A DNA stretch of 64,000 nucleotides from an uncultured Candidatus Saccharibacteria bacterium (lineage in GTDB: Bacteria; Patescibacteriota; Minisyncoccia; UBA6257; WO2-44-18). Position numbers and translations under genes: made by a program. Under the pieces are notes generated by a model that was not told the DNA's origin, did no database searches, and saw nothing but the letters and a program-made list of their open reading frames with translations. Of the stretch, positions 2,770-57,420 are shown piece after piece. How positions within the stretch are numbered: position 1 is the stretch's first letter; every line of letters starts with the position of its first letter. The stretch lies in assembly GCA_964373675.1 (NCBI GenBank), contig CAYJVO010000002.1:3054-67053 (forward strand), written 5' to 3'.

Positions 2770-3768
2770 TGAGGGCTTTTTGTTAACGTTCAGAGACAAA
2801 AAATCGTTAGTATCATAACGAGGAATCAAAAAAGCGGAATCTTTGGGAGTAATGGAACGCCGCTCAATAGTGACCGCGTACCGGAAACCGATCTCATCCA
2901 GAAGATTAGCCGTTTCGGGGGCGTAACGGCCGTGGGGATAAGAAAAAACATCCACCCCCTTCCCCAAAAGTTCCTCCAAAATCTTTTTAGAAGTTTGCAG
3001 ATCGGCGCGCGCCTTTTCTACCGGTAATACCTCAAACGAATTATGACCATGCGAATGACTCCCGATCACCATACCCTCCGCATCAAGCTTGCGCACCTGG
3101 TCGGAGCCCATAAATAAAGCTCGGCATAAAACCTCTTCATCCAAACCGAATTTTTCAAAGTAAAAATGTAAAAACTGCTCCCTGGTAACCGAAGGCAAAG
3201 TAATCATCGCCTCTTTAAAATTATTTGTCAGCCTATCGCCGTGCTTCCGGCGATTATCAATGCTGCGATCTTTCGGAATCACGTAGGCTCCTTGCGACCA
3301 ACTGTTGAAAAGGTCAATCAGTTCGCTCGGCGACGAACGGGAAAAAAGGATGTGAAGCTTATGGGTTAAAGGCAGCTTGCCGCCGAAAATAGAAGTAATG
3401 ACAAAAAAAGTCCCGGTCGCCTTATATTTTTTTAAGATCGGCGCGGCATTTTCGTAGTTATCCCTGAATCCGTCGTCAAAGGTAAACGCGCAAAACTTAC
3501 CGGAACTTCCTTCTCGCGCGGCCTGGTATACCTCGGGCACCGAAACTATGCGGAAACGCTCGACTAACCATTGCACCTGCCGATCAAACTCCTTAATAGA
3601 GCATGGGTGAATCCCGCCCCAAGCCGGATCAGGATCCCGTACGTAGTGATAAGTAACGATGATGTAATTTTCTTTTTCCATAATGATCTTAGACGCCTGT
3701 AATCTGCGCCAAAAAATCCACGCTGCGTTTGTAGGATAATCCGTCGGTATACCGGACATGCGAAGCAA
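2764..3768 (-). CDS. polysaccharide deacetylase (NodB/CE4 family)
   Basis: FTFDDGFRDNYENAAPILKKYKATGTFFV matches the NodB motif. The true start may be the internal Met at 3681 (MEKENYIIV), which would remove the overlap with the upstream gene. Confidence 0.75.
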   Translation of the reverse strand: MLRMSGIPTDYPTNAAWIFWRRLQASKIIMEKENYIIVTYHYVRDPDPAWGGIHPCSIKEFDRQVQWLVERFRIVSVPEVYQAAREGSSGKFCAFTFDDGFRDNYENAAPILKKYKATGTFFVITSIFGGKLPLTHKLHILFSRSSPSELIDLFNSWSQGAYVIPKDRSIDNRRKHGDRLTNNFKEAMITLPSVTREQFLHFYFEKFGLDEEVLCRALFMGSDQVRKLDAEGMVIGSHSHGHNSFEVLPVEKARADLQTSKKILEELLGKGVDVFSYPHGRYAPETANLLDEIGFRYAVTIERRSITPKDSAFLIPRYDTNDFLSLNVNKKPSS

Positions 3769-5104
3769 CGATGCGCCGCCGCGCCTCGCCGTCCAGTTTT
3801 GGATTATCCAGATACAGGTTGATCAATTTCGGCAGATCTTCATCAGTTTTAGCCAAGCGCACTGCACCACTCTCGTAAATCGGTCGGTAATGGTTGAATT
3901 GGTATGCTAAGGCAAAACGATCAATATAGCCGATATTAATAATCGGTTTGTCAAAAATACAGGCCTCAATGGAAATGGTAGAAGCATAATTAATATTCAA
4001 ATCAGTATACTTTAAAGAATATTTCAAATTCAATAAATCGCCGTAATTCATTTCTACTTTCCCGTCGGTATATTTACCAGCCGGATCAATGCAAAGATCC
4101 GAAGTATTTAAAAATTCTTTGTAATGGTCGTAAACATCTAGCGGGTGGATACGAATGAATAAATTAACGTAAGGAATTATTTTATCTTCTCGCAAGCGGA
4201 TAAGATCGCGGATGTATTTTTTTTGAAATGGATACGCTTTAGTAACCGTGGTATGGAAAATTGTTTTATAAGCCGGATTTAGTCCTTTGGATTTTAAAAA
4301 CTCCTCCCTTGAGGGTATGTGATTCGAAATATCCGAATTCCATTCAAATAATTCTAAACCATCTTTGTTTTCGGATAATTCGGATGTATTAGAATTTTTT
4401 GAATCGCTTCTATCAAAGTAAGGATCAAAACGTGGCGTCCCGGAAACAAAAATCTTATCCGGCAGATAACGATGAATCTCAAGAACCTCTTTTTTAATAA
4501 TATCGTTCCAGGCAATCAAATAATCAGTTTTCCGGATATGTTTGGCATTGGTTGTCGGATTATCCCAAGAAGCGTTAATCGCAACAGTTGGAATCTTTAG
4601 CTTTTTAGCCGATAAAATAATTTCTGCCTCCCAGCTATCAAATCCCGGCGTTGCCGTAATCACCAAGGCTGGCTGATATTTCCCCGCTAATTCCAAAAAC
4701 CGCCGCGATCTTGGCAATAAGATTTCCTCCAGCCAAGTAAAAAAATCAGCGGTTAAAAACGGCGAAAAAGGCTTGCCGAAAAACCTCAAAATGCGCCGCT
4801 TCCAATTATTTTTATAATTCGGCCGCTTATACCAATGACGAATAGAGGCTAGATAATCAAACTCATTTACTAAGCTGATCCGTAAAAATTTAAAGAATTC
4901 CCAGAATTTCGGACTAGCCGCCCTCAGCTTTTCGTAAAAAACATTGGATGACTGCAGATAATTGCGCTGTTTCGCGATCTCGGCATCAATCATCGGAGTC
5001 AATACCACCGCACGGTATTTGCTTGAAAGGTATTCAATATATTTTGTCCGCAATAGGTCGCTGGTGGCAATATAATTGGGAAGCGCTAAAAAAACAGTTC
5101 GCAT
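3689..5104 (-). CDS. TagF-like CDP-glycerol glycerophosphotransferase family protein; carries an in-frame 89-bp repeat insertion
   Basis: 471 aa with a GTPRFD motif typical of the TagB/TagF family. An SD (GGAG) is supplied by the R1 repeat immediately upstream. Residues NSNTSELSENKDGLELFEWNSD are encoded by the MITE-like repeat at 4319-4407. Confidence 0.6.
   Translation of the reverse strand: MRTVFLALPNYIATSDLLRTKYIEYLSSKYRAVVLTPMIDAEIAKQRNYLQSSNVFYEKLRAASPKFWEFFKFLRISLVNEFDYLASIRHWYKRPNYKNNWKRRILRFFGKPFSPFLTADFFTWLEEILLPRSRRFLELAGKYQPALVITATPGFDSWEAEIILSAKKLKIPTVAINASWDNPTTNAKHIRKTDYLIAWNDIIKKEVLEIHRYLPDKIFVSGTPRFDPYFDRSDSKNSNTSELSENKDGLELFEWNSDISNHIPSREEFLKSKGLNPAYKTIFHTTVTKAYPFQKKYIRDLIRLREDKIIPYVNLFIRIHPLDVYDHYKEFLNTSDLCIDPAGKYTDGKVEMNYGDLLNLKYSLKYTDLNINYASTISIEACIFDKPIINIGYIDRFALAYQFNHYRPIYESGAVRLAKTDEDLPKLINLYLDNPKLDGEARRRIVASHVRYTDGLSYKRSVDFLAQITGV
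4319..4407. mobile_element. 89-bp MITE-like repeat, copy 1, in-frame inside the TagF-like CDS
   Basis: About 90% nucleotide identity to 10674-10762. The termini are inverted: GTGATTCGAAAT...TTTTTTGAATCGC. Confidence 0.65.
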
Positions 5105-5105
5105 A

Positions 5106-5215
5106 CTAAATTTTATTCTCCTTCGCCGAAAACCCCGGGCGGCCTACTCCGCCGAGTCTGACTCGGCTACGAAGGCTGGATAAGCCCGCGGGATGAAGGC
5201 GAGGAGCTTCATTTT
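5106..5215 (-). repeat. R1 structured repeat copy (supplies SD for the TagF-like gene and extends the dehydrogenase ORF)
   Basis: Reverse complement equals GAAGCTCCTCGCCTTCATCCCGCGGGCTTATCCAGCCTTCGTAGCCGAGTCAGACTCGGCGGAGTAGGCCGCCCGGGGTTTTCGGCGAAGGAGAATAAA, and ends 7 nt before the ATG at 5104. Confidence 0.7.
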
Positions 5216-6179
5216 CTAAATTCTTAATTGCCTTAACCACTAACTCGCTAATATAAACTTGAGTGCGTTCAGTGGCTTCCTCGGTAGAGCCGCCCAAATG
5301 CGGCAAAATGATCAAATTCTGATTTTTCCTGGCGTATTCCACCAACGGATTATTAATCAAATGGGCGCCGTCCGGGGATTCATCTGCCAACGTATCAATT
5401 CCCGCTCCGGCAATCCATCCTTTTTTTAAAGCCTCCAGCAATGCGACCTCATCAGTAATTTCCCCGCGGGCGGTGTTGATAAAAACGGCGGTTGGCTTCA
5501 TGAGTTTAAAATGTTCCTGTTTAAGCATTTTATAAGTAGAATCATTGTAAACAGCGTGAAGAGAAACAACATCGGATAATTTTAAAAGATTAGGCAGATC
5601 CGCCTTAACAGCTCCGTATTTTTTCATCTCGGCGGCGCCGACAAAAGGATCATAAGCCAACGCCCTCATTCCAAAGGCCGCGCTGTAGCCAGCCACCAGC
5701 CGTCCCAGCCGGCCAAAACCAATCAAACCGATAGTTTTTCCAGAAAGTTCCCGGCCGCTGTATTTAGCCCGATCCCATTCGCCTTTCTTAATCGCTTCAA
5801 ACCCCCAAGGAATTTTTCGCAACAGCGCCAAAATTAAAGCCATTGTTTCCTCAGCGGTAGAAGGAGTTTTGTGAAGAGCGGGAGCATCAGCTTTTATATT
5901 AACTATCTTAATGCCGCGCCGCCTGCACTCATCCAAATCCAAATACCTCAACTGGGTGGTGCGGGAACCGATCAGCTTTAATCTGCGCGCCCGATCCAAA
6001 ATAGGCTTATCAAACTTAACCTCCAAACCGGTCACTACCACATCGGCTTTTGACAAATTTCTAAAAAACTCCGCCCGCGATCCAAAATTAATCACCCGGC
6101 CGGATCGAGCAAGAATTTTTTTAGCTTTTGCGCTGAATTCTTTTTCCGCAATTAAAATATTAATTGATTTTTGAGCCAT
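5106..6179 (-). CDS. D-isomer-specific 2-hydroxyacid dehydrogenase (NAD-binding)
   Basis: GLIGFGRLGRLVAGY Rossmann motif and the typical family length. The last ~35 codons (RLHPAGLSSLRSRVRLGGVGRPGFSAKENKI) are read through the R1 repeat at 5106-5215, so the native C-terminus is probably earlier. Confidence 0.75.
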   Translation of the reverse strand: MAQKSINILIAEKEFSAKAKKILARSGRVINFGSRAEFFRNLSKADVVVTGLEVKFDKPILDRARRLKLIGSRTTQLRYLDLDECRRRGIKIVNIKADAPALHKTPSTAEETMALILALLRKIPWGFEAIKKGEWDRAKYSGRELSGKTIGLIGFGRLGRLVAGYSAAFGMRALAYDPFVGAAEMKKYGAVKADLPNLLKLSDVVSLHAVYNDSTYKMLKQEHFKLMKPTAVFINTARGEITDEVALLEALKKGWIAGAGIDTLADESPDGAHLINNPLVEYARKNQNLIILPHLGGSTEEATERTQVYISELVVKAIKNLENEAPRLHPAGLSSLRSRVRLGGVGRPGFSAKENKI

Positions 6180-6921: not shown

Positions 6922-7134
6922 CCCGCACATAACTAGGACTGCAACAGCCTCGCTTCTCTGAAAAAAACGCCATCATTCACAATTTTTTATCAGCAAATCT
7001 TCGTAGCAATAGCAGTTTAACGCGTTAAACGCTTTGACGCGTCAAAGCACTATCCCATGGGATAGTGCTAGGAAATAACCCCACACAGCTTTGTCTCAGG
7101 CATTGAAGAAAGCGGAGTCCTAGTTATGTGCGGG
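6922..7134. mobile_element. inverted-repeat cassette, family A copy 1 (TIR CCCGCACATAACTAGGACT / AGTCCTAGTTATGTGCGGG)
   Basis: 19-bp perfect terminal inverted repeats at 6922-6940 and 7116-7134. The interior contains the perfect palindromes GCTTTGACGCGTCAAAGC and AGCACTATCCCATGGGATAGTGCT. The interior plus right arm is repeated at 45014-45174. Confidence 0.6.
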
Positions 7135-7206
7135 GCAAGCCCCGAGAAAATTAATAACTATATTAATAATTCCTAAATTAACTTAATAACCACTCAATAA
7201 CTACCA

Positions 7207-7297
7207 AACTATAACCTGTGCTATAACCTGTGCTATAAACTACATTATAAACTGTGCTATAAACTATACTATGCTATAAACTATACTATAAACTATT
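7207..7297. repeat. iteron-like tandem repeats (CTATAAAC/CTATAACCTGTG units, about 7 copies)
   Basis: Direct reading of 7207-7297 shows the tandem units. The block lies in a 710-bp non-coding region. Confidence 0.7.
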
Positions 7298-7303
7298 AAT
7301 AAA

Positions 7304-7343
7304 TCTTTCCGTTATAACCGCCATGGCGGTTATAACGGAAAGA
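7304..7343. repeat. 40-bp perfect palindrome TCTTTCCGTTATAACCGCC-ATGG-CGGTTATAACGGAAAGA
   Basis: Exact reverse-complement symmetry centred on CCATGG. Confidence 0.85.
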
Positions 7344-7346
7344 TTT

Positions 7347-7404
7347 CCGAAAATCCGAAAAAAATGAATCTCCAAAAAAATGAACCTCCGAAAATGAAAC
7401 TCCC
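7347..7404. repeat. tandem repeats of about 15 nt (AAAAATGAAYCTCC), 3-4 copies
   Basis: Direct reading of 7347-7404 shows the repeated unit. Confidence 0.6.
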
Positions 7405-7424
7405 CGGGCTTACCCTCGGCCTCG

Positions 7425-7608
7425 CTGTAAGCGGAGCCGAGTCTGACTCGGCGGAGCCCCACGCCTTTGGCAGGGCAATGCTCGCCCGTGGCAGGGCGTG
7501 ACGCCCGGGATATTCTTTGAATGAAGCTCCACGGCCTTATCTAGCCTTCGTAGCCGAGTCAGACTCGGCGGAGTAGGCCGCCCGGGGTTTTCGGCGAAGG
7601 AGAATAAA
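7425..7608 (+). repeat. R1 structured repeat family (one partial and one full copy) with GCCGAGTCWGACTCGGC hairpin
   Basis: CTTCGTAGCCGAGTCAGACTCGGCGGAGTAGGCCGCCCGGGGTTTTCGGCGAAGGAGAATAAA at 7546-7608 also occurs at 5106-5170 (reverse complement) and 56953-57024. A partial copy lies at 7425-7460. The local context is GC-rich. Confidence 0.7.
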
Positions 7609-7611
7609 CAA

Positions 7612-7640
7612 TAAAAAAAGCCGCGGTTTGATCGCGGCTG
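7612..7640 (-). terminator. rho-independent terminator of the sqd1-like gene
   Basis: On the minus strand, CAGCCGCG-ATCAAAC-CGCGGCTG is followed by TTTTTTT directly after the TAA stop. Confidence 0.7.
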
Positions 7641-10145: not shown

Positions 10146-10871
10146 TTATTTTTGCAACACAAAAAAATAGTGATACTTATTCAATACCGGTTTTATTTCG
10201 CGCAAAATACGAAAATGCGAACCTAAAATTCGCCTGACCTTACCTAATCGGTAGTTCCAATAATCAATCTCCCAATAATGCTGACCAGAAACCTTGATGC
10301 CGCCGAACTTCAACGGAATACGCAGGAAAAAATCCAGAAAGGATTTTCTAAAAATAGTGCGTACGCCTGGAAATTTGAAAACCCATTCCCAACCAGTGGA
10401 TTTATAAGGCAAAGAAATCAAGGCGTAGCGCTTAGTCACGCGCCGTAATTCCGCCAGCGCCTTAGAAACCTCTTCAAACGGAATATGCTCTAAAACTTCA
10501 AAAGCCGTAACCACGTCAAATCCGCTTTCTTTAAATGGCAATGAGCGTATGTCTGCCACCACATCCGGATTTAAATTCTTATCAAAATCGCAGGTCGTCA
10601 AATTATAGCCCAGCTTTTTCATATAGTCCGAGAAAAACCCGCTGCCCTTCCCAATCTCCAAAATTTTAAATTTGCGATTCAAAACATCCGAATTCCATTC
10701 GAATGATTCTAAACCATCTTTGTTTTTGGATAATTCTAATGTATTCGAATTTTTTGAATCGCATTCCGCAATCTCTTGCACAAGACTAACTTGATAATAA
10801 TAAGAAATAAACCGCTCGAGGTCATCATACTTACGCCGAAAATAATGTTCTTTTTCAACTTGTGGGTTCAT
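10146..10871 (-). CDS. class I SAM-dependent methyltransferase carrying the in-frame 89-bp repeat
   Basis: ILEIGKGSGFFSDYMKKLGYNLTTCDFD is MTase motif I. Residues DSKNSNTLELSKNKDGLESFEWNSD are encoded by the repeat at 10674-10762. Confidence 0.6.
   Translation of the reverse strand: MNPQVEKEHYFRRKYDDLERFISYYYQVSLVQEIAECDSKNSNTLELSKNKDGLESFEWNSDVLNRKFKILEIGKGSGFFSDYMKKLGYNLTTCDFDKNLNPDVVADIRSLPFKESGFDVVTAFEVLEHIPFEEVSKALAELRRVTKRYALISLPYKSTGWEWVFKFPGVRTIFRKSFLDFFLRIPLKFGGIKVSGQHYWEIDYWNYRLGKVRRILGSHFRILREIKPVLNKYHYFFVLQK
10674..10762. mobile_element. 89-bp MITE-like repeat, copy 2, in-frame inside the methyltransferase CDS
   Basis: 11-bp terminal inverted repeats GCGATTCAAAA / TTTTGAATCGC. 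The host proteins are unrelated, but the repeat translates to nearly the same peptide in both. Confidence 0.65.
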
Positions 10872-17931: not shown

Positions 17932-19139
17932 TTAGGAAAAATGGCTACATCATCAAAATAAGCAGTCCCCGCAGCAGGATCAAATTCCATCCTCAATTCA
18001 TCAAACTTATCTGCTGTACCATTATTTTGGAAACTCTCTTCCGGCGTAAAAGGACCATTATCAATCCTTACCCGATATTTATCGGTTACTAAATCAAAAG
18101 ATATAAATAGAGTATGCCAGGTATTAGGAAAATATTGACCGGCCAAAGTGCCGCCACCACTCCCAACTTCGCCGGCTGGCCTCATATGCACTGAAGCCTT
18201 AGCAATACCATTTTCCCTTAAAATAGCCACAAATTTTCCGCTGCTACTAGTAGTGCGTCTCATTCTAACGCTTAAAATTCCCTTTCCCGTAATTGGGGTA
18301 AATCTTCTATCAGCGGTTGCGGTGATACCTTGGTTCTCAACGGCTTTTAGGCCCTCAAAAACAACACTGTTTTGAACATTGTATGCGTTTGAACTCCACG
18401 CATTAGTCCACCCCGCGCCACTATTATTTCCATTAAGCGGTCCAATATCATAAATATCAAAATCATCGGACACTAATGGGGTTGGCGGCGGTGGTAATGG
18501 CGGTTCTCCGGTACCGCAATCCACAGATATAGTATTAAGGATGCCAGCAGAATTTACCGTTACTTTATGACAATTAGAGCCGTCGGTATCTTTGAGAATA
18601 ACGTCATTTAAAGTACCGACTTTGGTTATTTTAGTAAAAGGCCCGACTAAAAGATCATCATTGGTAATTGTGTTATCACCGATTGTTCCTCCGGTTCCCC
18701 CATTGACCGCATTAAGAGTTGATAATATTCCCAGTCCTAAAGATAGCCGTCCCGCCACCGCATCCAAATTAGCAGAATCACCATCCCACTGCCTTCTTTC
18801 ATTAAAGGCGGTATCCCAACCAAAAGCTTTGGCGCTCAAATCCAATCCATCTATTAAGCCGGATAATTTTATATCACCGAGAACGGAAAGATTGCCAGCT
18901 ATGTCCACTTTTTCTACCGGGGCATTCGTTCCTATGCCAACTTGATCGGTTTGGGTGGTTAACCTCACAACCGTTCCGCTATCTGTCCATCCCGCTGGAC
19001 CACCTTGAGCCGGAGCGCCAGCAGGGGGCCCCTGGGCCTCGACCAACTGTGTCTCATCGTTGCGTGAAGGAAAATAAATAAACGCCGCCACAATCAAAAC
19101 TACGACAGCGAGAGCTAATAAAAAGGAGTTTTTGGTCAT
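17928..19139 (-). CDS. secreted/membrane-anchored hypothetical protein (N-terminal TM, Gly/Pro-rich linker, beta-rich C-domain)
   Basis: MTKNSFLLALAVVVLIVAAF signal anchor followed by GPPAGAPAQGGPAGW. No catalytic motif recognised. Confidence 0.4.
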   Translation of the reverse strand: MTKNSFLLALAVVVLIVAAFIYFPSRNDETQLVEAQGPPAGAPAQGGPAGWTDSGTVVRLTTQTDQVGIGTNAPVEKVDIAGNLSVLGDIKLSGLIDGLDLSAKAFGWDTAFNERRQWDGDSANLDAVAGRLSLGLGILSTLNAVNGGTGGTIGDNTITNDDLLVGPFTKITKVGTLNDVILKDTDGSNCHKVTVNSAGILNTISVDCGTGEPPLPPPPTPLVSDDFDIYDIGPLNGNNSGAGWTNAWSSNAYNVQNSVVFEGLKAVENQGITATADRRFTPITGKGILSVRMRRTTSSSGKFVAILRENGIAKASVHMRPAGEVGSGGGTLAGQYFPNTWHTLFISFDLVTDKYRVRIDNGPFTPEESFQNNGTADKFDELRMEFDPAAGTAYFDDVAIFPN

Positions 19140-20239
19140 GAATTTAATGATAGCATTTTATTGTAAATAACGTTGTATAGCTGGGCAGTTTTCCCCCAAC
19201 TCATTGAACGCGCAAAAGAAATCGAATTTTTCGACATATCAAACCTCAAATCGGGATTAGATAATATTTTCTCCATAGCGGCTGAAGCGCTCTTTGGGTT
19301 CTGCGGACTTACCAAAATGCCGTTCTTCCCGTCCCTAACCGCGTCTTCCGCGCTAGTTTCTTTAGTAGTAATCACCGGCAATCCGGCGGCCGCCGCCTCC
19401 AAGAAAACCAGTCCAAAACCTTCAATGTCTTTGTTAACATCCTGCGGCATTAATATAAAAAGCTCGGCGTTTTTATAAACCGATATCAATTCTTCCTCCG
19501 ATAAATTTTCTAAAAAAACAACCCGATCTTGATACTTGATACTTGATACTTGCCGCTGAAGCGCTTCGTACTCCGGCCCTTTCCCGACAATCACGTATTT
19601 CAAACCTGGAAACTTCTTGGCTACTTCCGCGAATGCCGCGATTGAATATTCGTATCCTTTTCGTTGCTTTAATGTTCCAACGCTTAATATATAAGGTTTC
19701 AATTTCTGGACTTCCGATGTCCCAATATTGACGTCAATGGTTTGGACATCGGAAGTCCCTGATATTGATTCGAATTTTGTAAAATCAACGCCGTGATTAA
19801 TAACAGAGATTTCCAAATCCGGCAAAAATTTCTGGATTTCTCTTTTGGTATTATTACTAACCGCTATTACCCTAAACGCTCTTTTATACGCCCATTTCAT
19901 AATCGGCCGTCTCCACCAGCTGTAAAACGGCTTAACCGCCCCGGTGCCAATGCCGGTTATAATTAGTTTTTTTCTTGATCCTAAAGATACTATGGCCGCA
20001 ATCACGCCATATGGCCAGCCATCCAAGGCATGAATAATATCGCAATATTTAAAGGCTCGACGAATACAGAAATAGAAAAAAGGTAATTGCCAACATTTTT
20101 TCGGCAAACCGCTATCATGAGTTAAAACTTCATATTGAAAATCTGGAACAATCTTTTCAAGAGCGCTGATTAGCGAATGATAAAACCGCCCGGCGCCAGT
20201 TTTATCGCTTAAATCATGATTAAGATAACAAATTTTCAT
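19136..20239 (-). CDS. GT4-family glycosyltransferase
   Basis: YVIVGKGPEYEAL...FGLVFLEAAAAGLPVITT is the GT4 C-domain signature. A heptamer-repeat-encoded loop (QVSSIKYQ) is present. Confidence 0.8.
   Translation of the reverse strand: MKICYLNHDLSDKTGAGRFYHSLISALEKIVPDFQYEVLTHDSGLPKKCWQLPFFYFCIRRAFKYCDIIHALDGWPYGVIAAIVSLGSRKKLIITGIGTGAVKPFYSWWRRPIMKWAYKRAFRVIAVSNNTKREIQKFLPDLEISVINHGVDFTKFESISGTSDVQTIDVNIGTSEVQKLKPYILSVGTLKQRKGYEYSIAAFAEVAKKFPGLKYVIVGKGPEYEALQRQVSSIKYQDRVVFLENLSEEELISVYKNAELFILMPQDVNKDIEGFGLVFLEAAAAGLPVITTKETSAEDAVRDGKNGILVSPQNPKSASAAMEKILSNPDLRFDMSKNSISFARSMSWGKTAQLYNVIYNKMLSLNS
19528..19552. repeat. heptamer tandem array (CTTGATA x3.5) inside GT4 CDS
   Basis: CTTGATACTTGATACTTGATACTTG. 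It is in-frame and encodes QVSSIKYQ. Confidence 0.8.
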
Positions 20240-24765: not shown

Positions 24766-25836
24766 TTATACGAAAACTTTTATTAGTTTTTCTATGAGGG
24801 TGGGTAAATTATGCCTCTCAATGATTAAGGTCCTCAGGCGTTTACCTATTTGTTTACGCTCTTCTTCGTTCAATATTATTAAATTTAAAATTTTATGCGC
24901 TAAATCAATCGGGTCCTGCGACTTAAACATTAATAAACGATCAAGATCGTGCGGGAAAATTTCTTTAAACGTCTCATTAGTTACTAATACCGGCAATTCG
25001 CAAGCCATCGCCTCTAAAGTAGTCTTATCAAAACTGCCAGTGCGCGTCAGGTTTACAAAAAGGTCGTGTTCATTGTAGATAATAACAGTCTGATAATTGG
25101 GGACCTTCGGACGAAATTCCACTAATGCCGGGAGATTCAATTCTTGTATTAAATTTTTAATTTTTTCATAATATTCTTTTTCATCCGGTTTGCCCGGCGT
25201 CGGCTCGCCAACGATCGTCAAACTAACATCTGACTTTGACTGTTGAATTATTGCCAGAGCGCGCAATAAAGTCTCTAAATCCTTTACCGGCGCAATCCTC
25301 CCTAAAAAAAGAACTTTGAACTTTGAACTTTGAACTTTGAACTTGAGCGGCTCAAACCGCTCTGTGTCTATTCCCTGCTGCAAAATCGTTAATTTTTTAC
25401 TTCTCAGCGGATAAGCCAGCCGAGTTGAGGTAACGATTTGATCTGCGAGCCAAGCGGCAAGCCGTAGTTTTAAATTAGCAAGATAATGCGCATACCACAG
25501 AATTATTTTTTTACCCCACAACTTCCAGAAAACTCCGCCTAAAATAATATATTCTGGATTCATATGCACAAAAACAGCGTCGTAATCATTCCTCAATCGC
25601 CAAATATATTTATAAAATCTCAAAATATAAATTAACCGTCGCATCCAATTCCTAATTCCTTCTTTACCCAACGAATACACCTTTACACTCTCCGGTAATT
25701 CCGCTCGGCCACGATAAAGACAAATCACCGAGATTTGTTTAACTCGCTGTGCCAATTCCTCAATCCAACGGTGATAGATGCCTAAAACATCATCATCTTT
25801 GTCTACTTTTTGGGTGATGAATAACAATCTTGCCAT
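24766..25836 (-). CDS. GT4-family glycosyltransferase
   Basis: FLGRIAPVKDLETL...NLPALVEFRPKV. A heptamer-encoded loop (KFKVQSSKFK) is present. Confidence 0.75.
   Translation of the reverse strand: MARLLFITQKVDKDDDVLGIYHRWIEELAQRVKQISVICLYRGRAELPESVKVYSLGKEGIRNWMRRLIYILRFYKYIWRLRNDYDAVFVHMNPEYIILGGVFWKLWGKKIILWYAHYLANLKLRLAAWLADQIVTSTRLAYPLRSKKLTILQQGIDTERFEPLKFKVQSSKFKVLFLGRIAPVKDLETLLRALAIIQQSKSDVSLTIVGEPTPGKPDEKEYYEKIKNLIQELNLPALVEFRPKVPNYQTVIIYNEHDLFVNLTRTGSFDKTTLEAMACELPVLVTNETFKEIFPHDLDRLLMFKSQDPIDLAHKILNLIILNEEERKQIGKRLRTLIIERHNLPTLIEKLIKVFV
25311..25346. repeat. heptamer tandem array (GAACTTT x5) inside GT4 CDS
   Basis: GAACTTTGAACTTTGAACTTTGAACTTTGAACTTGA. It is in-frame. Confidence 0.85.
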
Positions 25837-26975
25837 GATTTTTTAATTGCATCTAAATACTGCTGCTTAGTTGGCCAATTTTTTAAAAGGTTATTCTGCC
25901 CATCAATAACTCTCCTTCGTTCCGCGGGATTGGCTATTAACTCTTCTAAAACCTCGATGAGCCGCTTTTTGTCGCCTACCGGCACCACTCGGCCAATAGC
26001 CGCACCGACATCGGTCATAACCACCGGCAGACCGGCCGCCGCCGCCTCAACCGCCGCCAGACCGTAACCTTCGTAGTTGGAGGTCAATAAAAATAAATCC
26101 GCGGTCTTGTAATAAGAAATCAGATCATCCGTCCAGGGCTCAATAATTGCGTTATTTTGCAATTTTAAATTTTCAATTTTAAATTTTAAATTTTGGCGTT
26201 CCGGACCATCGCCAACGATCAATAACAAAGGATTTCCGACGCTTGATGCCTGACGCTTGACGCGATTAAACGCCTCGATTGCTAATCCGATATTTTTCTC
26301 TCGCGACAATCGAGAGGCCACGAGAATAATAAAATTGTGGCTCGGATATTTTCTGTGAAGATCGATCTTGATTGGAGATTTTTTTATTTTTTTAACGTCA
26401 ACAAAAATTGGCCGCACTTCAATTTTGGACTCGGGATAATCAATTTGCGAAATAACGGATTTTTTAATCCGATCACTAACTACCCGCAGGCGGTCGGCCT
26501 TTTTAATTAAAAACTTCGCCAGCAAAACCCGGATTTTATTCTTTAATGACTCCTTCGCGAAATACGGGCTTAAAAAATCCGTATGCGCTTGAAGCTCTAA
26601 CGGAATTTTGAATTTCTTTTTCAGAGGATAGCCCACTAAGCCGGTCTCAAAAGGATCCTGCGCCGTTACTAGATAATCCGAATGCTTCAAGCTTTTATCC
26701 GAATTATCCGAACTCAAAATATATTTGGCGATTTTGTAGGCATCCCAAAAATAAAAAGGCTTGAGGCGCGTATTGGTGGAATAAATCCAAGCGTTCGCAG
26801 TTATTGCTTTTTTGTTCGGGGCATTCGGATAGCGGTTCGTATTATTCGGATTATCTTTTGTGTAAACTATGATGTGCAGCTCCTCGACAAGTTGAGCGTA
26901 CTCAATCATCCTCTGCCGAACAGCCGAGTTTTCTTTAAAAATATTTGAATCTGCTGATAACATTAAAAGCCGCAT
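25803..26975 (-). CDS. GT4-family glycosyltransferase
   Basis: LLLIVGDGPERQNL...GYGLAAVEAAAAGLPVVMTDVGA is the GT4 signature. Confidence 0.75.
   Translation of the reverse strand: MRLLMLSADSNIFKENSAVRQRMIEYAQLVEELHIIVYTKDNPNNTNRYPNAPNKKAITANAWIYSTNTRLKPFYFWDAYKIAKYILSSDNSDKSLKHSDYLVTAQDPFETGLVGYPLKKKFKIPLELQAHTDFLSPYFAKESLKNKIRVLLAKFLIKKADRLRVVSDRIKKSVISQIDYPESKIEVRPIFVDVKKIKKSPIKIDLHRKYPSHNFIILVASRLSREKNIGLAIEAFNRVKRQASSVGNPLLLIVGDGPERQNLKFKIENLKLQNNAIIEPWTDDLISYYKTADLFLLTSNYEGYGLAAVEAAAAGLPVVMTDVGAAIGRVVPVGDKKRLIEVLEELIANPAERRRVIDGQNNLLKNWPTKQQYLDAIKKSWQDCYSSPKK
26161..26194. repeat. heptamer tandem array (AATTTTA x5) inside GT4 CDS
   Basis: AATTTTAAATTTTCAATTTTAAATTTTAAATTTTG. It encodes LKFKIENLKLQN. 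Confidence 0.85.
26240..26264. repeat. degenerate heptamer array (GCTTGAT/GCCTGAC/GCTTGAC) inside GT4 CDS
   Basis: GCTTGATGCCTGACGCTTGACGCG. Confidence 0.6.
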
Positions 26976-28179: not shown

Positions 28180-30477
28180 TCAATAATTGAGTGTGTTTAA
28201 AATTTCTACTAGCTTTGTCATACAATTTCCTATTGAAAATTGTTTGGCCTTTTCTTTGGCATTTCTTACTATCTTTTCTCTAAAATTCTTATCACTGCCA
28301 ATTTTTCTAATAGCGGCCAGAATTTGTTCTTTGCGGTTGGGCTCAACCAAAATCCCTTCTTTGCCGTCATCAATGATTTCGGCTAAATTGCCGATCTTGG
28401 TAGTTATAACCGGCAGGCCGGCATTCATTGCTTCCACCACCTGAAATGAAAAACTCTCAAAAGAAGTATTTAAGACAAAAACCGTCACGCTATGCAATAA
28501 TTCCAATAATTTTTCTCGTGGAACGGCATCCAAGAAATCAACTTTATTTTTGACACCTGACACCTGACACTTGACACCGAGCGCTTCACGCTCTGGCCCG
28601 TCTCCCACAATCACCAATTTCCAGTCCGGCAAATCCCGCATTAAGTCAATCAAAACATCGAACCCCTTCCACGGCACCAGACGGCCAGCCGATAGAATGG
28701 TTTTGAGTTGATGAGTTGATGAGTTGATGAGTTTTTTGGATGGCGGATTATCTAGCTGTATGCCGTTGTAGATGACTTTCACTTTTTCCGGATTTTTTAT
28801 CCAGCCGCCGACTAGTTTTTGGAAGTACTGGCTGGGAGTGATAATTATCTTGGCCTGATTGGCAACAAACTTTTGCACGCTGCGCAATAATTCTGTTCGC
28901 AATCCATATCTTTTTTGCTGAAACTCATCAATAGAATCTTTAACCCCAAAACGCTGGGCCGCCTGCTCCCAAGCATAATCGCCGGCAACTCTCATAATAA
29001 AGGGCTTTCTCAAAACCTTGGCTGCCAGCATTGCCGGCAATCCTACGCTGACTGGATCCTGCGAATAAACAATGTCATTCCTCCGCGCCCTTAACAGACA
29101 TTTGAAAAAATAAATCAAATGGCGAATGCCAATCGGCCAGCGCCTGACAACCCGAAAGGGCAGAACCGCGATGCTCATTCCGTGCTTCGGCAATTCTTTT
29201 TCCAAAAGAGCGGTGTAAGTTGCCGGACCGCCGATCTCCGGAGGATAAATTCCGGTAGCTACTAAAAGTCGTGTAATTGGTAATTTGTAATTGGTAATTA
29301 GAGCTTGGAAAATATTTTTAATTTTTGATGCAATTTTGTCCCAGGAATAATTTTCTAAAACTAGCTTTCTTCCATTTTCAGCTATTTTGTTTCTTAGAAT
29401 ATCATTTTCCATCAAACCTTTTATCTTTCCAGCCACATCCTTAAAGTCATCAACTTGACAAAAAAGGCCCGTCTCGCCATCCTTTAAGAAATCAGAAATT
29501 CCCCCAACTGGAGTTCCGATAATTGGCAAGCCGGCCGCCATGGCTTCCAAAAAAGAATTGCCTAATCCTTCGGAACGAGATGGTCTTACAAAAATATCTG
29601 CCCCAGCCAAATAATTCGGTATCTTGTCCGGATCAACGTGGCCCAGAAACTCAATTTTGTCGGCTACTCCTAAATCCGAGGCTAGCTTTTTTAACTTTTC
29701 TTCATCTGGTCCAGAACCTAAAACCTGACACCTGATACTTGACACCTGATACTTCTTTAATTCTGCTACAGTTCGAATTAACGTATCAATGCCATTTTTA
29801 TGAACTAACCGCGAAGTTGTTATAAGGGTATAGGGTTTAGCGTTTAGGGTTTTAGATTTTTCACTATACGCCATACGCTTAACGCTAAACGCTTCAACAT
29901 TCACGCCATTCGGCACTACTTCAATCGGACACCTGGCTCCGTGCCGTCGCGCAAAATCCATCAGATAATTGCTGATTACTTGAATATAATCGGCCTTTTT
30001 GAATAAAAACCGCCACAAAGGATAAAAAATCCCCACCCGCCTCAAAATATGCGATTCGCTATCCCCCTCCTGCAGCGTAAGAAGAAGCGGGATGGACGGA
30101 TGCCGCAACTTGAAAAAAAGCGCGGCCATGCCGCCATAAGAAGCCATTATTGCCCAAATTAACTTAAAGGACTTTTTTTTGTGTTCTTGCTCTGCCGTTC
30201 GCCAAGCGCGAAAAGCGTACAAAATTTTTTTAAAAAAGTGGCCGTAATAATCGTGCTGGTTGAGGCCGCCGCTCCCGATCCTAATTACCTCAACATTGCT
30301 TATCTTTTCCCGCGAAAGCCAATGCCGGTCAAATTTGTAGGTAAAACAAAAAAAATTATCATCCGGCAGCCGATCAGTAATTTCTTTAACTGCCACTTCC
30401 GCGCCTCCCACGAAAGGAAAATAAGCGGTGCTGAAAATAACGATTTTAGGACTCATAAATCTTTTCTGTTTCTTCAA
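28180..30477 (-). CDS. tandem double GT4 glycosyltransferase (two GT-B units, 765 aa)
   Basis: Two GT4 signatures: VLGSGPDEEKL...GLGNSFLEAMAAGLPIIGT and VIVGDGPEREAL...SFQVVEAMNAGLPVITT. The gene contains five heptamer/octamer arrays in loop positions. Confidence 0.75.
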   Translation of the reverse strand: MKKQKRFMSPKIVIFSTAYFPFVGGAEVAVKEITDRLPDDNFFCFTYKFDRHWLSREKISNVEVIRIGSGGLNQHDYYGHFFKKILYAFRAWRTAEQEHKKKSFKLIWAIMASYGGMAALFFKLRHPSIPLLLTLQEGDSESHILRRVGIFYPLWRFLFKKADYIQVISNYLMDFARRHGARCPIEVVPNGVNVEAFSVKRMAYSEKSKTLNAKPYTLITTSRLVHKNGIDTLIRTVAELKKYQVSSIRCQVLGSGPDEEKLKKLASDLGVADKIEFLGHVDPDKIPNYLAGADIFVRPSRSEGLGNSFLEAMAAGLPIIGTPVGGISDFLKDGETGLFCQVDDFKDVAGKIKGLMENDILRNKIAENGRKLVLENYSWDKIASKIKNIFQALITNYKLPITRLLVATGIYPPEIGGPATYTALLEKELPKHGMSIAVLPFRVVRRWPIGIRHLIYFFKCLLRARRNDIVYSQDPVSVGLPAMLAAKVLRKPFIMRVAGDYAWEQAAQRFGVKDSIDEFQQKRYGLRTELLRSVQKFVANQAKIIITPSQYFQKLVGGWIKNPEKVKVIYNGIQLDNPPSKKLINSSTHQLKTILSAGRLVPWKGFDVLIDLMRDLPDWKLVIVGDGPEREALGVKCQVSGVKNKVDFLDAVPREKLLELLHSVTVFVLNTSFESFSFQVVEAMNAGLPVITTKIGNLAEIIDDGKEGILVEPNRKEQILAAIRKIGSDKNFREKIVRNAKEKAKQFSIGNCMTKLVEILNTLNY
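28551..28578. repeat. heptamer tandem array (TGACACC x4) inside double-GT4 CDS
   Basis: TGACACCTGACACCTGACACTTGACACC. It encodes GVKCQVSGVK. Confidence 0.85.
28704..28733. repeat. octamer tandem array (TGAGTTGA x3.5) inside double-GT4 CDS
   Basis: TGAGTTGATGAGTTGATGAGTTGATGAGTT. It encodes LINSSTHQLK. Confidence 0.8.
29274..29301. repeat. heptamer tandem array (TAATTGG x4) inside double-GT4 CDS
   Basis: TAATTGGTAATTTGTAATTGGTAATTAG. Confidence 0.8.
29724..29754. repeat. heptamer tandem array (CCTGAYA x4.4) inside double-GT4 CDS
   Basis: CCTGACACCTGATACTTGACACCTGATACTT. It encodes KYQVSSIRCQV. Confidence 0.85.
29832..29858. repeat. heptamer tandem array (AGGGTTT x4) inside double-GT4 CDS
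   Basis: AGGGTTTAGCGTTTAGGGTTTTAGATT. Confidence 0.7.
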
Positions 30478-41353: not shown

Positions 41354-41464
41354 GCTAACGCAAATAATGCTAACCTACGAATTTACACGAATGCCACGAA
41401 TTATTTGCGTATTCGCATATATTCGCATTGTTTGCATTATTTAATTTAGTTTAATAATAACAAA

Positions 41465-43759: not shown

Positions 43760-43830
43760 CTTGACACCTGACACCTGATACCTGATACCTGACACATAAC
43801 ACCTGACACCTGATACATGATACATGACAC
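43759..43830. repeat. heptamer array, about 10 units (CTTGACA CCTGACA CCTGATA ... CATGACA), 3' of four-helix-bundle gene and overlapping start of next ORF
   Basis: Direct reading of 43759-43830. This is the longest array in the window, in the opposite orientation to 43369-43398. Confidence 0.85.
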
Positions 43831-45013: not shown

Positions 45014-45174
45014 CTTCCACAATTTTTTATCAGCAAATCTTCGTAGCAATAGCAGTTTAACGCGTTAAACGCTTTGACGCGTCAAAGCACTATCCCATGG
45101 AATAGTGTTAGGAAATAACCCCACACAGCTTTGTCTCGGGCATTAAAGAAAACAAAGTCTTAGTTATGTGCGGG
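45014..45174. mobile_element. partial copy of family A cassette (interior plus right arm AGTCTTAGTTATGTGCGGG)
   Basis: About 95% identical to 6975-7134. It is flanked by a 23-bp direct repeat GCAAGCCCCCACGCCTAATAAGC (44989-45011 and 45175-45197) and followed by a 16-bp-stem hairpin. Confidence 0.6.
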
Positions 45175-45226
45175 GCAAGCCCCCACGCCTAATAAGCACC
45201 TCTTTTATTAGGTGTGGGGGCAAGCC

Positions 45227-46162
45227 TTATCCGGAGATTAATTTTTTAAATTCTTTCAGTTTGGCTAAAAAGGTTTTTTTATCCTTAGCTTCTAAGTTCA
45301 GGCGCAGGAGGTCTTCGGTCTGTGATGGCCGCACATTAAACCACCAGGCCCCAAATTCCATTTTCAGACCATCTAGATGAGAAAGTCTTTGGGCTTCTTT
45401 TTTATATTTCTGTTCAATCTTTGTTAAAATTTTTTCTTTGTCGCTGACTCTAAAATTTATCTCTCCGGAACGATGATATTTTGGTAAGCCATCAATCCAC
45501 TCACCCAAACTCAAGCCTTGATACCTGATACCTGATATCTGATTCATAAAATAAATCGCCGTCAAAATTCCTGAATCCCAAACCGCGCTGAATTCCTTAA
45601 ACTTAAAGTAGTAATGCCCGGAAGTTTCGGCAGCAAAATCAATTTTCTTTTTATTCATCAGTTTTTTAATAAAGTAATGGCCAACTCGCGAATTAATAAT
45701 TTTTTTGCCATCGGCTGAAATCAATTCTCTGGCTAAATAGCCGGCGCGAACATCTAAAATCAAGGGTCCTTTAAAACTTCTACTTATCAACACTGCCACC
45801 GCATCCGGCGCCACCGGCTGGCCACGATCGTCTAAGAAAAATACCCGATCACCATCCGCGTCAAAAATAATGCCGAGGTCGGCTTTATGTTTACGCACTG
45901 CTGTCCGCAAATCATTAAACGCATCTCTCCTCCATGGATCCGGCCCATGCGCCGGAAAACGACCATCAGGTCTATCATTAATTAAAATAGGCTTAACTCT
46001 TGATACTTGACGCTTGACACTTGATACTCGGAAAAGTTCTTTAAGAACTTTTCCGGTGGTTCCATTAGAGCAATCAAAAACAACTTTTAAAGCTCTTTCT
46101 AGCTTTAAAAACTTTTTCAAAAAATTTATGTATAACTCCAAATAATCCATGTCGCATTTCAC
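45227..46162 (-). CDS. phosphoglucomutase/phosphomannomutase, C-terminal domains II-IV (split from N-terminal ORF; GTG start)
   Basis: 311 aa starting at a GTG that overlaps the stop of the upstream ORF (AAAATGTGAAATGC). Contains in-frame heptamer arrays at 45527-45546 and 45999-46028. Confidence 0.65.
   Translation of the reverse strand: MKCDMDYLELYINFLKKFLKLERALKVVFDCSNGTTGKVLKELFRVSSVKRQVSRVKPILINDRPDGRFPAHGPDPWRRDAFNDLRTAVRKHKADLGIIFDADGDRVFFLDDRGQPVAPDAVAVLISRSFKGPLILDVRAGYLARELISADGKKIINSRVGHYFIKKLMNKKKIDFAAETSGHYYFKFKEFSAVWDSGILTAIYFMNQISGIRYQGLSLGEWIDGLPKYHRSGEINFRVSDKEKILTKIEQKYKKEAQRLSHLDGLKMEFGAWWFNVRPSQTEDLLRLNLEAKDKKTFLAKLKEFKKLISG
45527..45546. repeat. heptamer array (CCTGATA x3) inside PMM CDS
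   Basis: CTTGATACCTGATACCTGATATCTGATT. It encodes QISGIRYQG. Confidence 0.75.
45999..46028. repeat. heptamer array (CTTGAYR x4) inside PMM CDS
   Basis: CTTGATACTTGACGCTTGACACTTGATACT. It encodes VSSVKRQVSRVK. Confidence 0.75.
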
Positions 46163-46614
46163 ATTTTGCCTTTTACCATCGATAAAATTTCCTTGCCGCT
46201 GATTGGCGCTGCTTTCGGCCCAACAATTTTTAACCCGTTGTATTCTTTTGGGTTATGGGAAGCCGTGATTATAATCCCGCCAATTGCCTTAAAATGGTTT
46301 ACCAAAAAATAAAGCATTGGCGTGGTGATCATTCCCGCTTCCACAATCTTGACACCTGATACCTGACACATGACACGCACCATCGTTTCATACAACGCCG
46401 GCGAGCTCAATCTCGCGTCGTGTCCCACCATTACAACTTTTGACTTTTGACCTTCCCTCGACCTGAGCTCGGGACGAAGGTTGGCTTTTGACTTGAAAAA
46501 ATAGCGACCCAACGCGTAGGCAATTCTAGCCGCTATTTTTTCATTTATCTCCTCCGGATACCGACCGCGGATGTCGTATGCTTTGAATATTGCTTTATTT
46601 ATCATTAGTTTCAT
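46159..46614 (-). CDS. phosphoglucomutase/phosphomannomutase, N-terminal domain I (contains active-site TASHNP)
   Basis: GGIIITASHNPKEYNGLKIVG is the PGM/PMM phosphoserine loop. 151 aa, ending 4 nt into the next ORF. Confidence 0.7.
   Translation of the reverse strand: MKLMINKAIFKAYDIRGRYPEEINEKIAARIAYALGRYFFKSKANLRPELRSREGQKSKVVMVGHDARLSSPALYETMVRVMCQVSGVKIVEAGMITTPMLYFLVNHFKAIGGIIITASHNPKEYNGLKIVGPKAAPISGKEILSMVKGKM
46339..46368. repeat. heptamer array (CTTGACA CCTGATA CCTGACA CATGACA) inside PMM N-domain CDS
   Basis: It encodes VMCQVSGVKI. Confidence 0.8.
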
Positions 46615-56614: not shown

Positions 56615-56655
56615 GGTATTAATTATACGAAAAGTAAAAATTCAATCAAGTACGG

Positions 56656-56727
56656 GGTGCCCACCGGGAATCGGACCCGGGCCACTCCGGCCACAGCGGA
56701 GAGCTCTACCACTAAGCTATGGGCACC
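56656..56727 (-). tRNA. tRNA-His (GUG) with encoded G-1
   Basis: Reverse complement G-GTGCCCATAGCTTAGTGGTAGAGCTCTCCGCTGTGGCCGGAGTGGCCCGGGTTCGATTCCCGGTGGGCACC folds as a cloverleaf. The anticodon loop is CTGTGGC and the G-1:C73 pair is present. Confidence 0.85.
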
Positions 56728-56924
56728 ATATAAATTAAAATCTAAATTACAAAATCCAAATAACAAAACTAGTAATCACTTCTGCCGGATTTCCACCTAT
56801 ACAATACAACTGTTCAATGCGACTCGCAACATTAACACATTCCGCATCGCGTTCAGTTCATGTCATTCGGGTTGTATATTTAATGTTCGTATCATTCGGA
56901 TATAAGTTCCCGTTATTCGGATTA

Positions 56925-57025
56925 TCTATGTGCAGGGTTCATCCCGCGGGCTTATCCAGCCTTCGTAGCTGAAGCTACTTCGGCGGAGTAGGCCGCCCGG
57001 GGTTTTCGGCGAAGGAGAATAAAAG
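56925..57025 (+). repeat. R1 structured repeat copy (variant hairpin GTAGCTGAAGCTAC)
   Basis: ATCCCGCGGGCTTATCCAGCCTTCGTAGC...GGCGGAGTAGGCCGCCCGGGGTTTTCGGCGAAGGAGAATAAA is shared with 5106-5215 and 7535-7608. Confidence 0.7.
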
Positions 57026-57420
57026 TGCCCCGCAAGGCGATCCCTTGCGGGGCGAGAAATAGGAGAATGCGCCCCCCCTCTGGCGGCGATCCCGCCAGCA
57101 GGAAGCTTGGCTATCCGCCAAATCCGAGGATTCTCCGAACAATGAAATCCTTCAGCGCCCGGAGTGCGGACCTGATCCTCCTCAAGAAAGACGGCTTCGG
57201 TTCGCGAATGTCACCCACCGCTCCGAATCCAGCCGCCTCCTCAAGAGAAATAGGCGGCGCGTAGGTCCTGGCGACAAACCAGGATGGCGCCTTCTTGGAA
57301 CGCAGAAAGCGCCGCGCGCCCCGATTCCAATGAAATCTGGCATGAGAGTTAAGAAACCTTTGGCCCACGGACTTTTCACACCGAATGCAGAACGCCATGG
57401 CTCCTCCTTTCAAATCCTGG
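57025..57420. other. GC-rich (~60%) island of unknown nature adjoining an R1 repeat; contains a basic 94-100-aa ORF on the minus strand with a strong SD
   Basis: GC is about 20 points above the flanks. Minus-strand ORF 57111-57413 (MAFCIRCEKSVGQRF..., Arg-rich) is preceded by GAAAGGAGGAGCC. No RNA-family consensus could be matched by eye. Confidence 0.3.

Follow-up and report, generated by a model that had tools for sequence, protein, structure and literature searches.

How could two unrelated enzymes, encoded in one gene cluster of an uncultured Candidatus Saccharibacteria bacterium, come to carry nearly the same stretch of 30 amino acids? The question is raised by a 64,000-nt stretch of DNA, here called the window (GenBank assembly GCA_964373675.1, contig CAYJVO010000002.1, positions 3,054 to 67,053), in which an ungapped 90-nt direct repeat lies once within a gene for a TagF-like transferase (copy 1, 4318-4407) and once within a gene for a class I S-adenosylmethionine (SAM)-dependent methyltransferase (copy 2, 10673-10762). 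The original prediction, made from the sequence alone, described the repeat as an insertion resembling a miniature inverted-repeat transposable element (MITE), placed its second copy at 10674-10762 and put the identity of the copies at about 90%. Copy and identity were both confirmed, with 80 of 89 positions identical over the span first proposed (4319-4407 against 10674-10762) and 81 of 90 (90%) over the shared block, which begins one base earlier. The observations are probably best explained by a non-autonomous palindromic repeat, similar in behavior to the Rickettsia palindromic elements (RPEs), that was copied as DNA into permissive linkers, where it is translated into a disordered loop and evolves by neutral drift.

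Within the window, the match between the copies has an E value of 5e-27 (blastn-short), and none of 100 dinucleotide shuffles of the window yields a comparable match. The copies share both orientation and codon phase. The element begins at codon position 2, and its best-conserved 22-mer is GCGATTCAAAAAATTCGAATAC. Copy 2 is bounded by the exact inverted 11-mers that had been predicted, GCGATTCAAAA (10674-10684) and TTTTGAATCGC (10752-10762); its arms can in fact be followed to 21 nt at 90% complementarity, and on the coding strand its full length folds into a single hairpin (-20.8 kcal/mol as single-stranded DNA, z = -6.0). The hairpin of copy 1 is weaker (z of -2.4 to -2.8), and its termini are degraded. 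Because the differences in copy 1 disrupt stem pairs and compensating changes are absent, the hairpin has not been maintained at this locus. Both copies are free of stop codons, and four of the six reading frames of copy 2 are open. Of 30 aligned residues, the translated peptides (DSKNSNTSELSENKDGLELFEWNSDISNH and DSKNSNTLELSKNKDGLESFEWNSDVLNR) have 23 in common (77%), as expected from the claim that both hosts translate the repeat into nearly the same peptide; peptides from the inserts and their junctions include NSNTLELSK and DGLESFEWNSDVLNR. An insertion of 89 bp had been described as close to a multiple of three and devoid of stops. The second part of that statement stands; as to the first, 89 is not a multiple of three, and the shared unit is better given as 90 nt, or 30 codons.

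Palindromic and repeated sequences are notorious for causing misassembly, and the Logan contigs end at other repeats of the window. An assembly or chimera artefact is nevertheless extremely improbable, given that the two copies differ at nine positions, that each is in-frame in an intact open reading frame (ORF), and that an independent assembler, in the Logan assemblies, recovered both from ERR3478686 at 100% identity and copy 2 also from ERR4904391 (copy 1 in contig L034; copy 2 in contigs L001 and L002). Because the Logan assemblies reproduce both copies, an artefact of a single assembler is unlikely, although the metagenome-assembled genome (MAG) may stem from the same reads.

Both segments are insertions that are absent from most homologues. 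Alignment to homologues and a search for empty sites in orthologues had been proposed as checks, and both support insertion. Linker length was measured between two conserved anchors in about 120 homologues per host, PRFDxYF … FLxSKxL for the TagF-like protein and FISYFYQ … ILEIGKG for the methyltransferase. The TagF-like linker comprises 11 aa in 96 of 117 homologues as opposed to 38 aa in the window protein, and the methyltransferase linker 11-15 aa in most homologues as opposed to 42 aa. Approximately 90% of the homologues of each host lack the ~30 residues, and empty sites extend to the nearest TagF-like relative, P0122 (77% identity by BLASTP, 81% by MAFFT), whose linker has 11 aa. In the TagF-like protein, the insert follows GTPRFDPYF in an inter-domain linker; in the methyltransferase, it separates the N-terminal helix (…FISYYYQ) from strand beta-1 and motif I (ILEIGKGSG). 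The AlphaFold model of the TagF-like protein has a mean predicted local distance difference test (pLDDT) score of 93.2, and residues 238-257, between the N- and C-terminal Rossmann-like halves, are its only segment below 50. In the methyltransferase model (mean 90.4), residues 41-60, between the N-terminal helix and beta-1/motif I, average 62-63, most of the remainder reaching at least 90 and the N-terminal residues 1-20 also being lower (65-79). In these models, the insert is predicted to form, in both hosts, a low-confidence loop on the surface and away from the core. The two hosts are as unrelated as had been claimed. One has the GT-B fold with only a weak match to PF04464 (21.0 bits, below the gathering score of 22.1, which most of its homologues pass), and in its AlphaFold model the closest solved structures are UDP-N-acetylglucosamine 2-epimerases, TagF, and TarL; the other is a SAM-dependent methyltransferase.

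Was it DNA or a peptide that was duplicated? A functional peptide module or small domain, gained by both enzymes and kept by selection, would be in keeping with two in-frame, stop-free copies whose peptides are so alike. The nine nucleotide differences between the copies argue otherwise, for they fall in eight codons of which six change the amino acid, about what unselected change gives; because six of the eight differing codons are non-synonymous, it is the DNA that was copied, and the peptide was not conserved. The original prediction had allowed that nucleotide similarity might merely follow that of the peptide, yet DNA identity (90%) exceeds peptide identity (77%). It had also allowed that the same peptide might exist in unrelated taxa, and this was not seen: a profile search with the insert peptide against 1.84 billion representative proteins returned only two matches, both to unrelated tandem-repeat proteins, in a set clustered at 50% identity within which insert-bearing members could be hidden. 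A word-index search of 5.8 billion proteins with the peptides and their flanks gave no candidates, a weak negative as the database contains the methyltransferase itself, and no Pfam match covers the 30-residue segment. With the segment absent from most homologues, poorly modelled (pLDDT below 50 or about 62) in otherwise confident structures, and read in another frame over the 5' half of a relative described below, the peptide-module explanation is largely refuted and now has very little probability. A mini-intein was considered separately and rejected; at least ~130 residues are needed as opposed to the 30 found here, and the terminal HN followed by C/S/T is absent.

A conserved relative of the element occupies an orthologous site in another organism. 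Positions 1198-1251 of L028, a locus from JGI metagenome 3300045950, hold a 54-nt (18-codon), internally deleted form (GCGATTCAAAAAATTCGAATACCTTCGAATAAGAATTCGGATATTTCGAATCGC) at the same linker of the orthologous methyltransferase P0046. This short form keeps the termini of the element, its first 30 nt matching the window copies at 27-28 positions and its last 22 nt at 20-21, whereas the P0046 gene is only 65.7% identical in nucleotides to the window methyltransferase outside the linker. The element is far better conserved than its host gene, and either was recently active in both lineages or has moved between them. In its 3' half the short form keeps the reading frame of the window copies (NSDISNR); its 5' half uses a different one (AIQKIRI in place of DSKNSN). 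In a neighbor-joining tree built with the linker masked, P0046 is distant from the window protein and lies among homologues whose 11-aa linkers are empty.

Taken with the empty sites, these findings suggest how the present arrangement may have arisen. A short, non-autonomous, hairpin-forming repeat of a candidate phyla radiation (CPR)/Patescibacteria genome would have landed, in each case, in a permissive linker of a glycan-pathway enzyme, in the GT-B transferase the linker between domains, in the Rossmann-fold methyltransferase that between the helix and beta-1. Because all 30 codons of the unit are open in this frame, it would be translated as a disordered surface loop and the gene would not be destroyed; after insertion, the element would drift neutrally. 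The copies presumably arose through transposition, or through a comparable process of copying and insertion driven in trans, and the host proteins presumably remain functional.

A number of results weigh against a mobile repeat of this kind, most of them bearing on how few copies there are and on what could have moved them. The known copies amount to no more than two full ones and a truncated one, and the full copies lie 6.4 kb apart in one gene cluster, as local copying might leave them. No third copy was detected in the window by blastn (7-nt words) or nhmmer, and another 3 kb of flank and ~100 kb of related loci contained none either. Scans of larger collections, which demand an exact match to one block of the element, yielded ten matches to the central 20-mer among GTDB species genomes, all of 20-25 nt only and in unrelated taxa, as by chance; no match to the left-block pattern in JGI metagenomes; and no match to the two best-conserved 22-mers in IMG/VR. 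BLAST searches of plasmids and phages were likewise without a match. The flanks of the three copies show neither a target-site duplication nor a common target motif, although three copies and diverged empty sites constitute weak evidence; GATAGA precedes two of the three and is absent before the third. None of the 58 window ORFs has a transposase Pfam match, Y1_Tnp included. The search for further copies that had been advised was thus rewarded with the short form in L028 and, in the window, the flank, the related loci, and the exact-pattern scans, with nothing more. The term MITE-like is apt as to size (below ~500 bp), the lack of a transposase ORF of its own, and the terminal inverted repeats, but not as to target-site duplication. 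Because the size and the terminal repeats fit and a target-site duplication was not found, MITE-like or RPE-like is the right level at which to pitch the claim.

These same results invite another account, in which there is no mobile family and a single event of local copying between genes 6.4 kb apart, through ectopic gene conversion or template switching at the hairpin, produced one copy from the other. The presence of just two copies in 64 kb, near each other and sharing orientation and phase, and the absence of transposase, target-site duplication, and matches in the collection scans would all follow. Such an event does not account for a relative in another organism, with a host gene 66% identical and termini ~90% conserved; moreover, the host genes share no homology around the insert to template conversion, and other hairpin families are dispersed in-frame likewise, e.g. 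at 19708-19758 of the window and in L013. We consider one-off local copying improbable.

One further scan, for a pattern of two terminal inverted repeats separated by a gap, gave 13 matches in JGI metagenomes, and these were rejected as unrelated to the element; they lie on contigs of 52-67% G+C (one of 39%), eight representing one orthologous locus, two being far longer perfect palindromes, and three being non-palindromic chance matches. The eight (L015, L017-L020, and L024-L026; 58-67% G+C) carry an 82-85-nt hairpin framed by the AT-rich 11-mers GCGATTCAAAA and TTTTGAATCGC. Because their flanks are conserved as well, they constitute one orthologous locus, which perhaps encodes a structured RNA.

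The original prediction stands in both observation and interpretation, each test that it proposed having spoken for it; what it missed is that the same two sites are used repeatedly, and that further repeats are embedded in coding sequence. Insertion of this kind is general in the lineage. Insertions are present in ~11 of 107 methyltransferase and ~11 of 117 TagF-like homologues, always at these two positions, and their carriers are scattered through both trees. The inserts differ in sequence. Five of the seven others that were folded form strong hairpins (z of -3 to -6.3; examples in Table 1), those of L030 and L032 folding no better than shuffles, and six of nine inserts are enriched 4-12-fold in CG[AG]AT/AT[TC]CG half-sites relative to their genomes. 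P0125 (L032) and P0196 (L033) carry, in the same TagF-like linker, inserts ~75-80% identical as judged by eye in the alignment (with the stretches …HPNSAPPPSGSGNPNAPIQIKE… and …HMNSTPSPNDSGNANAPTRIKQ…), although their host genes are 56% identical in DNA and distant in the tree. Judged from the alignment, here, for a second time, an insert appears to be better conserved than the gene that carries it.

The recurrence may reflect a selection filter through which only insertions in tolerant loops pass, targeting, or the replacement of an older hairpin by a newer one. Repeated use of the sites would seem to speak for tolerance and not targeting. It is enticing, if doubtful, to speculate that a hairpin superfamily of CPR/Patescibacteria, many of its members bearing CGAAT/ATTCG half-sites, homes to the inter-domain linkers of cell-envelope glycan genes or replaces older inserts there. 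If so, a sporadic, intein-like distribution across orthologues and a continual remodelling of the surface loops of these enzymes would be expected. Unlikely, too, is that the hairpins are not passengers at all but selected structures in mRNA or DNA, or protein-binding sites, between domain-coding segments, with roles in transcript stability or processing, translational pausing for co-translational folding, or recombination. Hairpins of interchangeable sequence would explain why two positions are occupied again and again across lineages, and the scattered carriers with one site each, the strong folding of most inserts, the shared half-sites, and the two insert families that each occupy one site in distant orthologues and exceed the host gene in conservation all agree with such a role. 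Against it, ~90% of homologues, the nearest TagF-like relative among them, do without any insertion, much of the pairing in copy 1 is gone and no other change makes up for it, and the inserts of L030 and L032 show no excess of structure. Furthermore, the number of terminator-like sequences in the region is within chance in a terminator/promoter scan, and the element matches no Rfam family.

The passenger-like palindromic repeat favored here has well-described counterparts, and in-frame intragenic MITEs and RPEs are already established (PMC10969869). RPEs were described by Ogata et al. as in-frame palindromic repeats in Rickettsia genes, as summarized in a review of MITEs (PMC10969869). We treat the present element as analogous to, and not as homologous with, these repeats. 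Going by that summary, both are short palindromic repeats found in unrelated metabolic genes, in-frame and free of stops, each giving a family-specific peptide; both sit where the protein fold tolerates them, in hosts whose genomes are small and which probably depend on a host or partner. Within the same limits, they differ in phylum, in length (90 nt with a 54-nt short form here, roughly 100-150 bp in RPEs), and in number (two copies plus one here, dozens of RPEs). They also differ in that the same linkers have here been struck repeatedly by different hairpin families across homologues; to our knowledge, nothing of the sort has been described for RPEs. The prediction of RPE-like behavior is therefore well founded as regards an in-frame palindrome in unrelated ORFs, a stop-free peptide, absence from orthologues, and a loop in the models.

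Bacterial MITEs with in-frame intragenic copies include ERIC/IRU of enterobacteria, MITEb and MITEe of Anabaena PCC 7120, and QMITE1 of Coxiella (PMC10969869). The element resembles them in its small size, its terminal inverted repeats, its lack of coding capacity for a transposase, and its occasional in-frame fusion with host ORFs. It differs in that the whole element forms one hairpin instead of two terminal inverted repeats around a core, and in having no target-site duplication and no parent insertion sequence (IS) in the window. Hairpin-forming repeats that lack target-site duplications are also found among repetitive extragenic palindromes (REPs) and REPINs and among IS200/IS605 elements, and by analogy a mobilization in trans of the REP-associated tyrosine transposase (RAYT) or IS200/IS605 type is plausible for a palindrome of this kind. 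REPs are ~20-40 nt long and extragenic, have a conserved GTAG-type head, and are mobilized by RAYT (Y1) transposases. Membership in the REP/REPIN-RAYT group was rejected for the element itself, which is 90 nt long and intragenic and has no GTAG head and no Y1 transposase in the window.

No earlier report of in-frame palindromic or MITE insertions in CPR, Patescibacteria, or Parcubacteria was found in the full-text literature, consistent with the claim that the phenomenon is unreported for this kind of genome. As judged from sequence, what is new here would be a known kind of behavior in a CPR/Patescibacteria lineage, together with a recurrent use of linkers by different hairpin families. Rickettsia is the best-known source of in-frame palindromic repeats, and RPE-like behavior in another lineage with tiny genomes and a probably dependent lifestyle suggests that tolerance of selfish DNA within proteins may more generally accompany small genomes and weak selection. 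There are practical consequences as well. Protein families in CPR metagenome bins are inflated and distorted by inserts of this kind, which also create orphan peptides and lower Pfam scores, the TagF-like host having dropped under the gathering threshold. Finally, the recurrent use of linkers provides a naturally made map of the positions at which GT-B and Rossmann-fold enzymes can accommodate 20-40 additional residues, and raises the question of whether the elements are targeted.

Both hosts belong to a long minus-strand cluster of genes for glycan and teichoic-acid-like biosynthesis, whose members include a polysaccharide deacetylase, a 2-hydroxyacid dehydrogenase, a cytidylyltransferase, epimerases, TylF-type and other methyltransferases, and many glycosyltransferases of family 4 (GT4). 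The named homologues of the hosts belong to MAGs of Parcubacteria, Paceibacterota, Harrisonbacteria, and the 'Patescibacteria group', which makes a CPR source for the window most probable. Relatives are contained in the sequencing runs SRR22387948 and SRR22388172. Coordinates of the hosts and of the other repeats are collected in Table 1.

Table 1. Host genes, copies of the element, inserts in homologues, and other repeats; positions refer to the window unless a locus is named.
Feature	Position	Strand	Remarks
Copy 1, palindromic repeat	4318-4407 (90-nt shared unit); 4319-4407 (89-nt palindromic body)	-	Residues 233-262 of TagF-like protein; hairpin decayed
Host gene 1, 471-aa GT-B fold enzyme, TagF-like	3689-5104	-	Weak CDP-glycerol glycerophosphotransferase Pfam match
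Copy 2, palindromic repeat	10673-10762	-	Residues 37-66 of methyltransferase; near-perfect whole-length hairpin
Host gene 2, 241-aa class I SAM-dependent methyltransferase	10146-10871	-	Pfam and AlphaFold model
L013 insert, methyltransferase			z = -6.2
L013 insert, TagF-like	9640-9735 of L013		z = -6.3
L029 insert, methyltransferase			z = -5.8
L031 insert, TagF-like			z = -3.2
Perfect-stem hairpin in GT4 gene	19708-19758		GGACTTCCGATGTCC…GGACATCGGAAGTCC
GT4 gene with perfect-stem hairpin	19136-20239	-	Hairpin before Glycos_transf_1 domain
GC-rich 87-nt repeat, three copies	5111-5197; 7529-7608; 56938-57024		88-96% identity
2-Hydroxyacid dehydrogenase ORF	5106-6179	-	Ends in first copy of GC-rich repeat
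Inverted CGAAT-rich 49-nt arms	26671-26719; 26808-26856		88 nt apart
GT4 ORF with inverted arms	25803-26975	-	Arms in N-terminal domain
CGAAT-rich copy, non-coding	56875-56928		Between tRNA-His (56654-56726) and ORF 57111-57413
Intergenic hairpin	41360-41450		ACGAAT/ATTCGC units
Heptamer arrays, first examples	19528-19552; 25311-25344; 26161-26194; 28551-28578; 29723-29754
Heptamer arrays, further examples	43762-43830; 45519-45543; 45999-46028; 46350-46376
Split phosphoglucomutase	45227-46162; 46159-46614	-	Overlapping ORFs
166-nt repeat, two copies	6978-7143; 45018-45183		95% identical; both non-coding
Repeat-rich spacer	6930-7640		Repeats include 7208-7296 and 7301-7346

At least two or three further repeats of the window are embedded in coding sequence. 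The perfect-stem hairpin in a GT4 gene is in-frame and translated as GTSDVQTIDVNIGTSEVQ, and it is 80% identical to the TagF-like insert of L013, from which it differs in orientation; because the two lie oppositely, palindromic elements can be translated in either orientation. None of the related loci examined contains a homologue of this GT4 gene, and the hairpin there is a candidate insertion. The 2-hydroxyacid dehydrogenase ORF owes its final 36 codons and its stop codon to the first copy of the GC-rich 87-nt repeat. In L013 and L014, the orthologous proteins stop at …KAIKNL; another repeat family has therefore joined a neighboring gene by in-frame fusion.

Repeats rich in CGAAT occur elsewhere in the window. 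In a second GT4 ORF, a pair of inverted arms encodes KDNPNNTNRYPNAPNKK and SSDNSDKSLKHSDY, and a related copy is non-coding. A hairpin of ACGAAT/ATTCGC units lies between the genes for ClpB and a class-V aminotransferase; because it is intergenic, hairpins of the CGAAT type occur outside genes too. A search of the window against Rfam recovered two tRNAs and nothing else.

Repeats of other kinds are also abundant. About 20 tandem arrays of heptanucleotides (CTTGATA, TGACACC, GAACTTT, AATTTTA, and others; 3-10 copies) are present, many of them inside ORFs, including those for glycosyltransferases and phosphoglucomutase. They resemble the heptamer short tandemly repeated repetitive (STRR) sequences of cyanobacteria, and units of seven bases in coding sequence could permit frameshift switching via slippage. 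The phosphoglucomutase is encoded by overlapping ORFs that set domain I apart from domains II-IV, with heptamer arrays in both; this could represent a frameshift, a pseudogene, or a genuine split. A 166-nt repeat is found at two non-coding sites, and the spacer that includes one of them contains 12-nt tandem repeats, a 46-nt perfect palindrome, and other repeats, making it unusually repeat-rich for a small genome.

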